A stretch of DNA of 64,000 nucleotides. Source: Myxococcota bacterium (GTDB lineage Bacteria; Myxococcota_A; Polyangia; Nannocystales; Nannocystaceae). The notes beneath the pieces are model-generated. The model searched no databases and had not been told where the DNA came from. It saw only the letters and a program-made list of their open reading frames with translations. Made by a program: the position numbers and the translations under genes. This document shows positions 26,613 to 43,410 of the stretch, in pieces. The stretch is taken from assembly GCA_039028615.1 (NCBI GenBank), contig JBCCHT010000005.1:1-64000 (forward strand), read 5' to 3'. Each line of letters begins with the position of its first letter. The stretch's first letter is position 1.

Positions 26613-27026
26613 TTAGTAGCGGCCGCCACCGTAGCCGCCGCCGCCGCCACGACCACCGCGGCCTCCACCGCCGCCGCCACCGTAGCCACCGCGGCCTCCA
26701 CCGCCGCCGCCACCGTAGCCACCACCGCCGCCACGGCCTCCACCGCCGCCGCCACGGCCGCCACCGCCGCCGCCGCGACCACGATCATTGGCCTCGTTGA
26801 CGCGAATGGCTCGTCCGTCGAGCTCCTTCCCGTCCATCTCCTTCATCGCGGCCTGCGCTGCCTCGGGGCTGTCCATGGTCACGAAACCAAAGCCGCGGGA
26901 ACGTCCGGTATCACGATCCAGGATCACCTTCGCGTCGGTCACGGGACCGAATTCCTCGAATGCGCTGCGAAGGCTATCGTCAGTGGTGTCCCAGCTCAGA
27001 CCGCCCACAAAGAGTTTGTTCGACAT
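26613..27026 (-). CDS. RRM RNA-binding protein with glycine-rich RGG/YGG tail
   Basis: RNP2 KLFVGGL and RNP1 RGFGFVTM; alternative GTG start at 27035. Confidence 0.95.
   Translation of the reverse strand: MSNKLFVGGLSWDTTDDSLRSAFEEFGPVTDAKVILDRDTGRSRGFGFVTMDSPEAAQAAMKEMDGKELDGRAIRVNEANDRGRGGGGGGRGGGGGGRGGGGGYGGGGGGGRGGYGGGGGGGRGGRGGGGGYGGGRY
26653..26718 (-). repeat. Exact 33-bp tandem duplication in the RRM tail (YGGGGGGGRGG x2)
   Basis: CCACCGCGGCCTCCACCGCCGCCGCCACCGTAG occurs at 26653 and 26686. Confidence 0.85.
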
Positions 27027-34137: not shown

Positions 34138-35085
34138 ATGCGATTGCCGCTCCGTCACCGCCCGCCACGAGTCGACCCTTCGCCCAATCGCTGCGCACAC
34201 CTGGAGGCGCTCGCGGCTGCGCTGGTCGGTGTGCCTCTGGGGGCGGCCGCCGATCTGGTCGCGCCGGGCGGGCGCTCGCGCGGTCGCCACGGCAACGCCC
34301 TCCAGTGGCACCTGGGCCTGGCTTCGCACGACGGCGAGGCTCGCCTCGATTGGGAAGACCGCATCGAGATCAAGCTGGTCTCGGTGTGGCAGCGCAGCGG
34401 AGCCGTGGCGTGCGACAAGCTCAAGGTCTGCGACATCTCGGTCGACCCTTGGCACAAGCTCTCCAACGTCCTGTGGGTCTTCGCCGATCGCCTGACGCGG
34501 GTGGTGGTGGGCACCCGCATGTGGCGGCTGCACGGTGACGCGCGACTGCGGCTCGCCCAGTCGTGGGAGGCCGACCCGCACTTCGATAACCCCGACCTCT
34601 TCGTCGAGGCGCGGGAGCGAGCCGATGGCACGTCGGCTCCGGCCTACTACTTGGGGGCGCGCTGGTTTTCCAACGAGGGCATCTTGCCGCCGCTCGGCCC
34701 GGGCATCTTTCCCTTCGACGCGCAGTGGTGGAGTCAGTCGCGGGCGGAGCACGGCCGCGAGCCGTGGCCCTCGATCGCCCTGGATGCCGCGGGGCAGCAG
34801 CGTTGCCGACGGTGCGGCGGCCCGCTGCGCTACTCGCCCGAGGCCCTGATCGAGCGAGGCTGGGCGCCCGCGCACCACGGTATGCCGATGGGGAAGTCGT
34901 GTGCTCCGCGGGGCCACTTCGTGATCGACGGCCGACGCCTGTGCATGCCGACCGAACTCCCGCTCGAGGACGTGCTCGACGCGTTGGATCGGCGCATTGC
35001 CCGCGAATCGGTGTGGCGTCTGAGTGAACGTGTGAGCGAGCCCGACGATCACCTACATGACGTTGATCCGGTCCCTAGGGCATGA
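34138..35085 (+). CDS. MutH/Sau3AI-like PD-(D/E)xK endonuclease with a C-terminal Cys/His extension
   Basis: RGRHGNALQWHLG, RLDWEDRIEIK (D...ExK), HKLSNVLWV and PAYYLGARWF align by eye with MutH; the tail has CRRC...HH...C...H. Confidence 0.65.
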   Translation: MRLPLRHRPPRVDPSPNRCAHLEALAAALVGVPLGAAADLVAPGGRSRGRHGNALQWHLGLASHDGEARLDWEDRIEIKLVSVWQRSGAVACDKLKVCDISVDPWHKLSNVLWVFADRLTRVVVGTRMWRLHGDARLRLAQSWEADPHFDNPDLFVEARERADGTSAPAYYLGARWFSNEGILPPLGPGIFPFDAQWWSQSRAEHGREPWPSIALDAAGQQRCRRCGGPLRYSPEALIERGWAPAHHGMPMGKSCAPRGHFVIDGRRLCMPTELPLEDVLDALDRRIARESVWRLSERVSEPDDHLHDVDPVPRA

Positions 35086-35124
35086 CACCGGCGTCGCGGT
35101 GCGCATGGGCGTGCGCACCGTACG

Positions 35125-35169
35125 AACCAAAACGAAGACCCGGAGTCGCTGACCAAGCGTCTCCGGGTC
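35125..35169 (-). terminator. Rho-independent terminator oriented for a minus-strand transcript
   Basis: Stem GACCCGGAG (35137-35145) / CTCCGGGTC (35161-35169) with inner CGCT/AGCG; followed on the minus strand by TTCGTTTTGGTT. Confidence 0.7.
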
Positions 35170-35461
35170 CCCCCCAGTAAAGTCTTTGTTTTACAGCACC
35201 GACCGAATCGCACGCGCGTATGGCGCGTTGCTAAGCGCTAGGTTCAGTTCAAGAGCAAGGGTAAGTCAGCGAAATCCAACTAGATCTAAGTCAAAAAGGC
35301 TAAGGGCAATCGAAGGCGTAGACTCTGAAAGTTAGGGGGTAGGGAGTCCAGGCCAAGCGATAAGGGAGAAGGTCAGACCAAGCGAGAAGTAAGCTAAGGA
35401 AGGAAAGCGGCACGGTTTCAAATGGACGTTTGCCAGCCGGGCCGCCTGCCTTTGAAGTTGT
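35125..35461 (-). ncRNA. Candidate novel sigma54-dependent small RNA (~335 nt) with repeated CUUA/CUUG motifs
   Basis: Bounded by a sigma54 promoter and a terminator. 35231-35410 is ~49% GC and ~69% pyrimidine on the minus strand, with 7 CTTA copies. No credible ORF. Confidence 0.6.
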
Positions 35462-35471
35462 CTCGCTTATA

Positions 35472-35487
35472 AGCAGGACTCGGGCCA
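35472..35487 (-). promoter_or_regulatory. Sigma54 (-24/-12) promoter
   Basis: Minus strand reads TGGCCCG-AGTC-CTGCT against consensus TGGCACG-N4-TTGCW; the GG to GC spacing is exact. Confidence 0.65.
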
Positions 35488-35493
35488 ACTTGG

Positions 35494-35506
35494 CAAAGTG
35501 TTGAAA
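35494..35506 (-). promoter_or_regulatory. IHF-like site just upstream of the sigma54 promoter
   Basis: Minus strand TTTCAA-CACT-TTG against WATCAA-N4-TTR (1 mismatch). Confidence 0.4.
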
Positions 35507-35586
35507 TCACGAGAGACAAGTTGGCAACCGCCTCGGATTGACCCTGGTTGTGAGGCCTGGGTATGACGTCGATGTCCGACTCGGCA

Positions 35587-35622
35587 GGGTGGAAACACCC
35601 GGACCACGACACGAATGTCGTG
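35587..35622. promoter_or_regulatory. Two adjacent palindromes (candidate enhancer-binding-protein sites or hairpins)
   Basis: GGGTG-GAAA-CACCC (35587-35600) and CACGACA-CGAA-TGTCGTG (35605-35622), ~125-160 bp upstream of the predicted TSS. Confidence 0.4.
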
Positions 35623-35729
35623 TGGATCAGGAGCCCCAAACCGTGCCTCCATTGCGCGCGGGGTTCGCGGGCCGTCCAAGCGAGCTTCGGGCTGTGCTAC
35701 ACGGCAAAAACGTGGCGAACGACGCAAAG

Positions 35730-36791
35730 ATGCCCAAGGTAGCCATCATTGGCGGCACTGGATACGGCGGAGCCGAGCTGTGCCGCCTGCTGATGGGTCA
35801 CCCCGGGGTTGAGCTCACCCGAGTGACCAGTATCGATCACGTCGACGAGCCCATCGAGTCGGTGCACCTCAGCCTGTACCGCACGGGGCTTCGCTTCGAG
35901 AACATCCCCCCCGCCGAGGCGGTCAAGGGGGTCGACGTGGTGTTCCTGGCCCTACCTCATAAGGTGAGCGCTACTCTCGCACCCGATCTCGAGGGGGCCT
36001 CGGCCAAGATCATCGATCTTTCGGGCGACTTCCGGCTTCGCGACGCTGCCGCGTACGGGGAGTTCTACGGCGTCGAGCACCCGCACCCGCAGCACCTGGG
36101 ATCGTTCGTGTACGGCATGCCCGAGCTGCACCGCGATGCGATCGCCGCCGCGAGCCGGGTCGCTTCGCCGGGCTGCTTCGCCACCACCATCGCGCTGGGG
36201 CTGCTGCCCCTGGCCCACGCCGGGCTGCTTCGCGGGGCGATCCACACCGTGGCCGCCACCGGTTCGTCGGGCAGCGGGGCCTATGCCAAGCCGGGCACGC
36301 ATCACCCGTTGCGGGCCAGCAACCTCAAGATCTACAAGCCGCTGGTGCACCAGCACACCCCGGAGATCGAGCAGACCCTGCGCGACGCCTGTCAAAAGGG
36401 TGGGCACGACGGCGACTTCTCGCTGCAGTTCGTGCCGGTCTCTGCTCCGCTGCCGCGCGGCATCCTGGCCAACAGCTTCGTGCAGGTCCCGGCCGAGGTC
36501 GATGCCGACCGTGTCGATCAGCTCTTCCACGACTTTTACGAGGGCGCGGCGTTCGTTCGCCTGCTCGGCCGAGGCGGCCGACAGTCCGAGGTCGTGTCGA
36601 TCAAGGGCAGCATGTGGGCCGACGTCAGCTGGACGGTGGGCGAGGTCGTGGGCGGTCAGCGTCAGGTCCTGGCCACCACCGCGCTCGACAACCTGGTCAA
36701 GGGCGGCGCCGGTCAGGCCGTGCAGTCCATGAACATCATGCTCGGGCTGCCCGAGACCACGGGCATCGACGCCCCCGCGCTGTGGCCATGA
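35730..36791 (+). CDS. argC: N-acetyl-gamma-glutamyl-phosphate reductase
   Basis: KVAIIGGTGYGG, FLALPH, IDLSGDFRL, YGMPE, SPGCFAT and DNLVKGGAGQAVQSMN. Confidence 0.93.
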   Translation: MPKVAIIGGTGYGGAELCRLLMGHPGVELTRVTSIDHVDEPIESVHLSLYRTGLRFENIPPAEAVKGVDVVFLALPHKVSATLAPDLEGASAKIIDLSGDFRLRDAAAYGEFYGVEHPHPQHLGSFVYGMPELHRDAIAAASRVASPGCFATTIALGLLPLAHAGLLRGAIHTVAATGSSGSGAYAKPGTHHPLRASNLKIYKPLVHQHTPEIEQTLRDACQKGGHDGDFSLQFVPVSAPLPRGILANSFVQVPAEVDADRVDQLFHDFYEGAAFVRLLGRGGRQSEVVSIKGSMWADVSWTVGEVVGGQRQVLATTALDNLVKGGAGQAVQSMNIMLGLPETTGIDAPALWP

Positions 36792-41382: not shown

Positions 41383-43410
41383 CTACGCTTGGTCGCCGAA
41401 CACTTCGAGGTAGCGGGCGAAGGCCCACGCCGGGAAGATGTGGCGATAGAGCCGATAGTCGAGCACGGCGGTGTTGAAGAACACGCCCGACGGTCGCTCC
41501 TGTGGCCAGCCGCCGTGGGGCAGCTGGCGCTCGCGAAGGAACGCCATGCCGCGCTCGATGGCCTCGCGCTCGTGCGGGGCGACCCGCAGCAGGGTGAGCA
41601 ACGCCCACGCGGTCTGCGTGACCAAGCTGGGCTCTTCGGGAGGCAGGGGCACGGAGGTCTCGCGCAGCAAGCCCTCGAAGCTCTCGCCCCAGCCACCATC
41701 GGGACGCTGCGCCCCGACCAGCCACCGAGCACCCCGCACCTGAGCGGGATGCATCGTCGACAAGCCGGCCGCATGCAGCCCGCCGCTGGCGAAGAAGGTG
41801 CCGTAGCTGAGGTTGATGCCCCAAAAACCGAGCCAGCCGCCTTCTTTGGCCTGGGCACCCAGCAGCGCCTGCGTGCCGCGCTCGATGGCGGAGTGCATGC
41901 GCGCCCGCAGGTCTTGATCGATCGCGTCTCCGAGCTGGCGCTCGGCGAAGGCCAACCCCCGGATGCACGACCCGGTGCACTCGCTATAGGAGTACTCGAG
42001 CATGCAGTTGCCGTAGATCTCGGCCGGGTTGAAGCGGCGCAAGGCCATCGGCCCGCGGCGAGCTTCGTAGGAACCGAAGCCGCCGTCCTCGTTCTGTCGC
42101 TGCAGGATGAACTCGATGGCCGCGAGCTTGCTGCCCAGCGACAGGGTGCCGCCCAAGTCGGAGAAGCCCCGTCGCTCGGCGTGCATGAGCGCTTCGAGGG
42201 CCTCGGCCGTGCAGTCGCTGACCGGCCAGGGGTGGTCTTCGTTGGCGAAGCCCCAGCCGCCGTAGACCGACTCTCGGAAGTGACGCTTGCGGCCGACGAG
42301 GTCCTCGAGGATCTGGGCGCGCGGCAGCCATCGACAGGCCTTGCGCACGATCTCGGTGGCTCGCGGCGTGGCTGGGCCCTCGCACAGCGCCTGCACCATG
42401 AACGCGGTGTCCCAGATGTCGCTGCGCGCCCCGGCGATGCGGAAGCCCTCTTCGTCGTCCGACCACACCCAGTACTCGAGGCCTTCGATGGCGCGGTCGA
42501 GCTCGGGGTGTCGCGGGTCGCTGGCGTGCAGGGCCAGGCAGTAGAGCATGCCGTTGACCGGGCTCAGGCACACGTACCCGGTGCTGCGGAACTCGTAGAG
42601 GATGTGCTCGAGCGAGACCTCGAGAGCCTTTTCGCGGAGCCGCGAGGGCACGAGGCGCTCGGCGATCCGCATGGCCGAGAAGGCGCCGCGAAGGCCCCGC
42701 GACAGCGGTTCGAACAGATCGGTGGAGGCGACGCGGTCGCGGTAGCGATCGAAGGCGCGCGGCTCGTAGCCCTCGGGATACAGCTCGTGACGAATCGCGT
42801 CGAGCTGGGCGTCGGGCGTGCACACGAAGCGCTTGCCGTACAGGAACGACAGCCCCAGGTAGATGAGCCGCATGTGGCAATAGAGCCGCGACGGGTGCAG
42901 CGGGGCCTTCTCGGGCAGCAGCCACAGCTCGGGCACGATGGGCTGCATGCCCGACCAGGGGTACAGGCCCAGCATCGCCAGCCAGGCGCGACCCCACGTG
43001 GGAATCTCGTAGACGCCCCCGCGCTGCCGGATGAGCCGCAGCGCGCCCGAGACCAGCGGATCGCTGGCGTCGTGCCCCAAAAGCCGCAGGGCCACGTAGC
43101 CCAGCACGGTGTGGAACAGGTACGAGGGCGTGTTGGGGTGCATGCCCCAGCCGCCGTCCTCGTTGCGCAGCACCTCGAGCTGGCGGTGGACCCGACGGGC
43201 GCGTTGGGCCTCGATCGGTCGCCCGAGCATGTGGCAGAGCATCACGTACTGGCACGGCAGCATCGGGTTCCACACCACTTCGCCCGCGACGCGCCCGTCG
43301 GCGTGCTGGCGGGTGCTCAGGTAGTGCAGGGCGCGATCGTAGGCGTCGTGGGTCTGCGCGACCGGGGCGGCGGAGTCGTTCAGGGGGCGGGTTTGAGAAC
43401 CAGGAACCAT
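41383..43410 (-). CDS. osc: 2,3-oxidosqualene cyclase (sterol/triterpene synthase)
   Basis: SDCTAE catalytic motif (not the DxDD of SHC); QW repeats (QNEDGGF, QRPDGGWGE, QLPHGGW); YCHMR. Confidence 0.9.
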   Translation of the reverse strand: MVPGSQTRPLNDSAAPVAQTHDAYDRALHYLSTRQHADGRVAGEVVWNPMLPCQYVMLCHMLGRPIEAQRARRVHRQLEVLRNEDGGWGMHPNTPSYLFHTVLGYVALRLLGHDASDPLVSGALRLIRQRGGVYEIPTWGRAWLAMLGLYPWSGMQPIVPELWLLPEKAPLHPSRLYCHMRLIYLGLSFLYGKRFVCTPDAQLDAIRHELYPEGYEPRAFDRYRDRVASTDLFEPLSRGLRGAFSAMRIAERLVPSRLREKALEVSLEHILYEFRSTGYVCLSPVNGMLYCLALHASDPRHPELDRAIEGLEYWVWSDDEEGFRIAGARSDIWDTAFMVQALCEGPATPRATEIVRKACRWLPRAQILEDLVGRKRHFRESVYGGWGFANEDHPWPVSDCTAEALEALMHAERRGFSDLGGTLSLGSKLAAIEFILQRQNEDGGFGSYEARRGPMALRRFNPAEIYGNCMLEYSYSECTGSCIRGLAFAERQLGDAIDQDLRARMHSAIERGTQALLGAQAKEGGWLGFWGINLSYGTFFASGGLHAAGLSTMHPAQVRGARWLVGAQRPDGGWGESFEGLLRETSVPLPPEEPSLVTQTAWALLTLLRVAPHEREAIERGMAFLRERQLPHGGWPQERPSGVFFNTAVLDYRLYRHIFPAWAFARYLEVFGDQA

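Follow-up and report, generated by a model that had tools for sequence, protein, structure and literature searches.

The stretch of 64,000 nucleotides that was analysed, here called the window, carries on its minus strand the gene for RNA-A, a real and previously undescribed RNA family that is present throughout the Nannocystaceae. There is very little doubt that this RNA gene exists, at 35461 to 35125. The computational evidence comprised its promoter architecture, its terminator, its repeats, a paralogue and its non-coding character. The sequence-only reading of the window had proposed that sigma54 drives an RNA of about 335 nt here; this proposal was well supported by conservation and weakly by one RNA contig. 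The role of the activator dyads, the IHF-like site, the paralogue and the motif in leaders are additions to that reading. The unit is probably of the decoy-RNA kind, with RNA-A acting as a decoy for an RNA-binding regulator. The best model was that of a CrcZ/CsrB-like, activator-induced decoy for a protein that binds a repeated word, to which we gave a probability of about 0.6. No Rfam family scored above its gathering score for the window RNA, for 11 homologous loci or for 8 further loci, and a literature search, conducted mostly without subscription papers, found no account of such an RNA. The features of the locus are listed in the table.

Table. Features in and around the RNA-A gene (positions in the window)
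Feature	Position	Strand	Remarks
Flanking gene, 315 aa	34138..35085	+	Convergent with RNA-A; conserved neighbour; weak MutH-like lead
Third activator-like dyad, 3' of terminator	35081..35098	.	PWM score 15.6
RNA-A, predicted non-coding RNA, ~336 nt	35125..35461	-	Promoter and terminator conservation; no ATG ORF; RNA contig inside
Terminator hairpin	35125..35172	-	Stem with G tract opposite CUUC; UUGGUC loop (conserved); U-rich tail
Stretch covered by metatranscriptome X1 contig	35173..35411	.	240 nt long, with 14 substitutions and one gap; depth 2.3
Conserved 3' element GGUCGGUGCUG	35194..35204	-	UCGGUGC also in paralogue
Unstructured pyrimidine-rich repeat body	35231..35410	-	URRCUU at 35396, 35334, 35293, 35268
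Sigma54 -24/-12 box	35472..35487	-	Homologues have box at phased distance
IHF-like site	35494..35506	-	1 mismatch to IHF consensus
Upstream activator dyad 2	35562..35579	.	Spaced 43 bp from dyad 1 and 90 bp from sigma54 box
Upstream activator dyad 1, GAC-N6-GTC core	35605..35622	.	PWM score 20.2
argC	35730..36791	+	Divergent from RNA-A; TIGR01850 332.9 bits (cut-off 233.6)

The promoter was of the sigma54 type that had been predicted, with a box at 35487-35472 in which GG falls at 35486/85 and GC at 35474/73; from the spacing of this box the start, claimed near 35461, was placed at A35461. The promoter also carries two copies of a TGAC-N6-GTCA-type dyad and an IHF-like site, called with the IHF consensus. 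In 29 aligned promoters the GACA and TGTC columns of dyad 1 and the GAC and GTCAT columns of dyad 2 were invariant, and the two dyads were 42-45 bp apart. In the homologues, dyad 2 and the sigma54 box were separated by distances that clustered at 78-81, 88-92 and 101; these are steps of one helical turn, as DNA looping would predict. The invariance of GG and GC is not independent evidence, because the search itself demanded those letters. An IHF-like site with two mismatches or fewer was found in 24/30 promoters versus 0/30 in an upstream, more GC-rich control, and its best match started 19 nt ahead of the box in 19/30. At the sequence level, the promoter thus combines the three CrcZ-type elements, namely an RpoN promoter, activator sites and IHF. 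Sites resembling the third dyad were judged by eye to be present in the genus relatives L002, L004 and L005. Promoter searches with blastn at E 10 returned mostly noise.

The genome (G000) gave 49 sigma54-domain matches, none of which was singled out as the activator. About ten HTH pairs were shared with a genome of Myxococcus; the best of these pairs, on contig C29 and FHA/GAF-like by eye, is a lead only. Judging from promoter sequences, the activator may be common to myxobacteria generally. In the Myxococcaceae (L296 1545-2000, minus strand; L302; L298 222-470) a dyad pair of this type, spaced by 47 bp, was seen with a sigma54 box. What they drive is a short, structured RNA, either single or tandemly duplicated, with terminators, located between NAD-epimerase-like and lipoprotein-like genes (named by eye); it had neither CU repeats nor an Rfam match.

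Conservation was analysed by several routes. A blastn comparison with 41 relatives gave two blocks of matches, one in the promoter region and one at the 3' end, and none in the body. A search with the flanking protein identified 23 loci, which by their labels belong to Nannocystaceae or allied bins, and the whole unit was present in 20 of them; two of the other three (L023, L043) were cut by contig ends and one (L030) was missed by the script. The unit that is kept consists of the dyads, the IHF-like site, a phased sigma54 box, a body whose length varies, GGUCGGUGC and a terminator that covaries. Cultured carriers of the locus are Paraliomyxa miuraensis and Enhygromyxa salina, and L092 was a family locus among the matches listed by a loose pattern scan of contigs. 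When a class-wide sample of 150 was searched, a model of the 3' end matched 17/17 other genomes of the family; outside the family, in the same class, it matched 7/132 genomes at no more than 27 bits, and the two weak loci of this group that were inspected lacked the unit. Four Myxococcaceae genomes yielded one partial match to this model, of 21.7 bits. The model of the dyad pair matched 68/72 family genomes at E≤0.05, some of them weakly, and reached at most 26.7 bits outside the family in the same class.

The identification of one neighbour as argC was borne out by TIGR01850. The "MutH-like" label of the 315-aa protein fared less well: the protein had no Pfam, NCBIfam or PDB match, its atlas neighbours were MutH clusters at 0.82, which is under the atlas bar, and the label is now a lead only. 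This gene is family-wide, with a weak MutH/restriction-like lead in its N-terminal part and a Cys/His-rich C-terminal part; viral relatives were looked for and none was found. Elsewhere in the window, 41383-43410 (minus strand) encodes a member of the squalene-hopene/oxidosqualene cyclase family (PF13249, PF13243).

Since argC or argB is usually adjacent, the conserved stretch might contain no functional RNA and instead act in cis on argC, be a DNA repeat or encode a small peptide. This explanation is extremely unlikely. The unit is not an argC leader, because in L038 its orientation to argC is reversed and in several loci another gene is adjacent to it, and its paralogue lies next to a NUDIX gene. 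The window RNA contained no ATG ORF, ORF lengths in the homologous RNAs were variable and patternless on both strands, and the terminator covaried.

This terminator had been read as a GC stem with a U-tract at 35169-35125, and its stem covaried in 19 homologues, where 89.1% of cells were paired and 8/16 pairs had changed on both sides. There were 37 stem cells changed on both sides compared to 14.8 in shuffled controls, with slid controls also lower, although kinship inflates such scores. A simple terminator scan of the window called no terminator. The G tract lengthens the stem, and GGUCGGUGC stands 5' of the hairpin with the UUGGUC loop. In one clade (L025-L029, L031) RNA-A had a longer, different 3' structured region without GGUCGGUGC. 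A seeming complementarity of the G tract to loop 1 of Pxr gave weak matches in coding or unrelated DNA and no Pxr-like RNA; the idea was dropped and the G tract assigned to the terminator stem. Pxr itself (RF01812) was over 80 bits in 0/5 family genomes and 0/121, true Pxr scoring 129.2 and 126.6 bits.

Transcription was weakly indicated. The only contig of the X1 seawater metatranscriptome on 34600-36200 was confined to the predicted RNA, although missing RNA cover over the flanking genes is no proof by itself. One substitution in this contig turns CUUAG into CUUGA, with UGACUU retained. The contig, which is unstranded and comes from one study and a related strain, is weakly consistent with the RNA-A model and could be DNA. 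One RNA run contained a small share of repeat words.

The body at 35231-35410 had the composition claimed for it (49.4% GC, 68.9% pyrimidine). TAAG was present at all seven positions that had been claimed, and CUUA occurred 7 times compared to 2.4 in 1000 dinucleotide shuffles (p 0.005); CUURG was present at six sites in the body. CCAAGCG likewise was confirmed at 35153, 35353 and 35378, with 3 copies of CGCUUGG versus 0.075 in shuffled sequences (0/1000), one of the three lying in the terminator loop. The proposal of titration through CUUA(G) repeats stood in part: titration of a protein remains the best model, but the conserved word is URRCUU, or CUURRCUU, and not CUUA alone. URRCUU often appears as CUUGGCUU, and CUUA is one variant. 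It was present in 25/25 RNAs, with 169 copies versus 24.6 expected, and in a held-out set there were 161 versus 20.7 expected, with 23/23 RNAs at p≤0.05; this set was 25 RNAs minus 2 duplicates, and the script mis-called the promoter in 4. Among the 25 RNAs, UGGCUU had 76 copies (8.7 expected), UAGCUU 40 (3.7 expected) and UGACUU 40 (8.1 expected). The excess was lost on changing the first or last U, and the flanks extend the word to C-Y-U-R-R-C-U-U.

Body length ranged from 213 to 529 nt in the 25 RNAs and from about 242 to 566 in the held-out set. The bodies had 44-72% identity to the window RNA and were little alignable, with four pairs above 72% among the homologues; the body of L289 was a near-perfect tandem expansion of repeats. 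The unit shows one trait of protein-decoy RNAs as a functional class, many copies of one word with a copy number that is free to vary. The 5' stem UUCAAA/UUUGAA that had been proposed formed only if the first 50 nt were folded alone (-10.1 kcal/mol), the first 60 nt preferring a different hairpin (-19.9 kcal/mol). Folding of the whole of RNA-A was no better than that of shuffles (z -1.08), the homologous bodies folded like shuffles (median z -0.1, 25 homologues), and the unpaired probability was 0.53 in motifs versus 0.44 elsewhere. The CsrB/RsmZ-type display of words in hairpin loops was not seen in the RNA, where only the terminator loop shows one. GGA was depleted (86 versus 136.9 expected in the 25 RNAs, with 3 in the window body), and A-rich (ARN)3-type words were not enriched (4 versus 2.6, in 3/25 RNAs).

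Ribosomal protein S1 and Rho favour pyrimidine-rich single strands, and a long, unstructured, C/U-rich body would suit a decoy or scaffold for such general machinery, a ribonuclease included, or a structural RNA; the genome-wide weakness of the leader signal described below points the same way. We regard this as very unlikely, since the fixed U-RR-CUU is far above composition-matched shuffles and its near variants are not, and in one genus (g10) the paralogue is G-rich under the same promoter.

RNA-A could also be a direct antisense regulator, in which the repeats, or the 3' GGUCGGUGC and the UUGGUC loop, would base-pair with many mRNAs at ribosome-binding sites rich in purines or at the 5' end of the coding region. 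The word is degenerate (R and Y) in a way that fits wobble pairing to a fixed RNA (R opposite U, Y opposite G), the 3' element is kept like a seed, and the complement of CUUGGUC was common right after start codons (29 versus ~5 per bin). Hfq-free pairing sRNAs are reported from M. xanthus (10.1101/2025.09.11.675593). The post-start signal, however, is that of the common Met-Thr-Lys opening, the complement of the 3' element was not enriched at starts, and U-RR-UUU was rare (12 versus 209) although wobble permits it. The wobble complement RRGUURG showed no strand bias at starts (21, 23 sense versus 20, 17 antisense), and a seed would not be expected to vary in copy number. The suggestion that UUCCUUCCUU or CUCCCU pairs with ribosome-binding sites was not upheld: in the 25 homologues the anti-Shine-Dalgarno words were not enriched, CCUCC (7 versus 18.7 expected) and CUCCC (12 versus 19.0) being below expectation, and UUCCUU occurred 15 times versus 10.8 expected. 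A direct antisense role is consequently unlikely. Pairing of the 3' element with 16S rRNA was considered and rejected, as 8/10 variants were no better than shuffles and 2 were borderline (0.03, 0.05); the anti-Shine-Dalgarno sequence was standard in 5/5 16S genes, g10 included.

A genome scan for dyad pairs found six. One of these units, RNA-B (contig C3 near 191400-192000, 582 nt), has the same dyads, box and repeats as RNA-A and also carries UCGGUGC, UGGUC and a terminator. Setting aside antisense Lys-rich and contig-end repeats, RNA-A and RNA-B were the only intergenic clusters of URRCUU in the genome. The RNA-B region was matched in 5/5 genus genomes, and other genera had RNAs at the corresponding position next to the NUDIX gene. 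The 3' model matched 4/5 genus copies of RNA-B weakly (16-20.7 bits) and 0/6 copies from other genera. In genus g10 the repeats of RNA-B are GGUUGG/GGUAGG, and RNA-A there keeps CUUGGCUU; UUGG is common to the CU-type and G-type words. The RNA-B copies of this genus (L305, L306, L307, L316, L317, L319, L327) had the same promoter and mostly the same locus, and G-quadruplexes are possible in their G-rich repeats (GGGUUGGG, GGUAGG). The promoter and body sequences of further units suggest third paralogues in other genera. Dyad and sigma54 units with long CU-repeat bodies were seen in other genera at L311, L321, L322 and L323.

The same word was weakly detected in mRNA leaders of genome G000, for which a simple gene caller gave 9272 genes. 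URRCUU occurred 93 times sense versus 31 antisense in 3499 leaders, ranking 1/512 among comparable patterns; with other start choices the counts were 115 versus 66, and the strict 8-mer gave 38 versus 14 of 5989. The TAGCTT matches in leaders also fit a -10 hexamer, and TGGCTT alone ranked 325/4096 against a Markov model. By eye, no gene for an RNA-binding protein was recognised among the 38 strict-motif leaders, and genome-wide the word was not enriched in signal-peptide genes (OR 1.17, p 0.44). Motif-rich leaders, scored with a looser pattern that was set after some leaders had been seen, were found in 3/7 mRNAs with dyads and a sigma54 box versus 3/189 other sigma54-like leaders. The products of those mRNAs look exported and are mostly without a Pfam family; one is a DUF2330 protein. 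A 56-aa ORF after a dyad and sigma54 box (L353 378-545, G000:C47) resembles a RiPP-type leader peptide by eye and has no Pfam match. In 31 DUF2330 leaders the word occurred 18 times sense, 1 antisense and 2 further upstream, and was in 10/31 leaders; control leaders of argC (16) and of the flanking gene (21) had 1 word each. G-type words were present in 15/23 DUF2330 leaders of g10 versus 3/25 of other genera and 5/44 control leaders, but the g10 and regulon patterns were chosen post hoc, kin are not independent, controls include wrong starts, and the G-rich words may simply be Shine-Dalgarno variants. The joint switch of RNA-B and the DUF2330 leaders in g10 is as mimicry would predict.

Same-sense sharing of the word, the joint switch in g10 and wobble-type degeneracy would be accounted for if RNA-A and RNA-B were sponges for a base-pairing sRNA whose seed reads URRCUU in the leaders and in both RNAs. 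Such an sRNA is distinctly unlikely: the predicted seed had 22 intergenic single matches with no clustered or obvious candidate, RNA-A/RNA-B duplexes were no stronger than shuffles in 8/8 genomes, and 16S rRNA lacks the predicted partner word.

The leading guess for a titrated protein partner would be the small Gly-rich RRM proteins, a choice that we infer because of the precedent of RbpB in Bacteroides only. The genome has six RRM genes, one of them inside the window, and RRM was present in 72/73 family genomes. URRCUU was absent from all six leaders, so there was no sign of RRM autoregulation. The window gene (26613-27026, minus strand, ~8 kb from RNA-A) encodes a small RRM protein with a Gly-rich tail and has a purine-rich leader, as do two other RRM genes. 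There was no PF17209 (Hfq) match in the 96.7% complete genome, in which controls were detected; myxobacteria are without Hfq according to PMC5684412. No cold-shock domain was found in this 12.3-Mb genome, and among five other family genomes tested such domains were present in two and absent from three. CsrA was represented by one PF02599 match, on contig C44. This sole csrA lies downstream of a sigma54 activator (L357, G000:C44 12884-15221) and is followed by a short ORF, FliW-like by eye; a partial ORF there had no Pfam match.

In the decoy model, a sigma54 enhancer-binding protein on the two dyads, with bending by IHF, would turn on RNA-A, RNA-B and a few mRNAs for exported proteins. The single-stranded URRCUU/CUURG array would be occupied by an RNA-binding protein with a sequence preference, many copies at a time, and so draw this protein away from mRNA leaders that have the same word near the ribosome-binding site, which would free translation. 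Protein binding, repression and the direction of the effect are the parts of this model that we infer. A broader picture is more tentative and somewhat doubtful: the Nannocystaceae may control gene expression globally after transcription by a switch that needs neither Hfq nor CsrA, in which one sigma54 activator would drive at least two decoys and exported-protein mRNAs, the decoys would titrate a sequence-specific repressor, possibly an RRM protein, and decoy and targets of one genus would have changed their word together.

Few regulatory RNAs of myxobacteria have been described, and the known bacterial protein-decoy systems mostly involve CsrA or Hfq. If the model is true, such a pair of decoys, family-wide and built on a new word, would suggest that global RNA-binding regulators of a third kind exist, for which RNA-A itself is the bait. 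The model can be tested directly, since the locus is present in cultured members of the family. Predation and the control of natural products may be affected through the co-regulated exported proteins.

RNA-A was compared with four known systems. The Myxococcus RNA Pxr is likewise myxobacterial, with a predicted sigma54 promoter and enhancer region (PMC5684412, PMC5568312). However, Pxr is 108-109 nt long, has three stem-loops and lies directly downstream of the sigma54 regulator gene pxrR, whereas RNA-A lies between argC and the 315-aa gene and has a different upstream sequence. FopS/GibS and RbpB of Bacteroides are similar in that paralogous sRNAs occur together with an RRM protein where Hfq is lacking (PMC11697453); FopS sRNAs, however, are alignable, pair through a seed and are counteracted by RbpB, whereas RNA-A has bodies made of repeat arrays that do not align, and its binding by RRM proteins is putative. 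CsrB/CsrC and RsmY/RsmZ, decoys of CsrA/RsmA, share with RNA-A the multiple copies of a word and the existence of paralogues, which for RNA-A and RNA-B would be under one activator; their word also occurs in target leaders, as that of RNA-A may. They differ in that RNA-A is depleted in GGA, its body is no hairpin array and its promoter is of the sigma54 type. The Pseudomonas Hfq/Crc decoys CrcZ/CrcY are alike in size (~400 nt, CrcZ being 407 nt), in control by RpoN, an enhancer-binding protein (CbrB for CrcZ) and IHF, in their repeats and in having redundant paralogues (PMC8395346). In contrast, the words of RNA-A are C/U-rich URRCUU and not A-rich, its genome had no Hfq domain that we could find, it has no Rfam match and it is not adjacent to its activator gene. 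The nearest counterpart of RNA-A in promoter and size is CrcZ, and in logic CsrB, but RNA-A fails the sequence tests for both.
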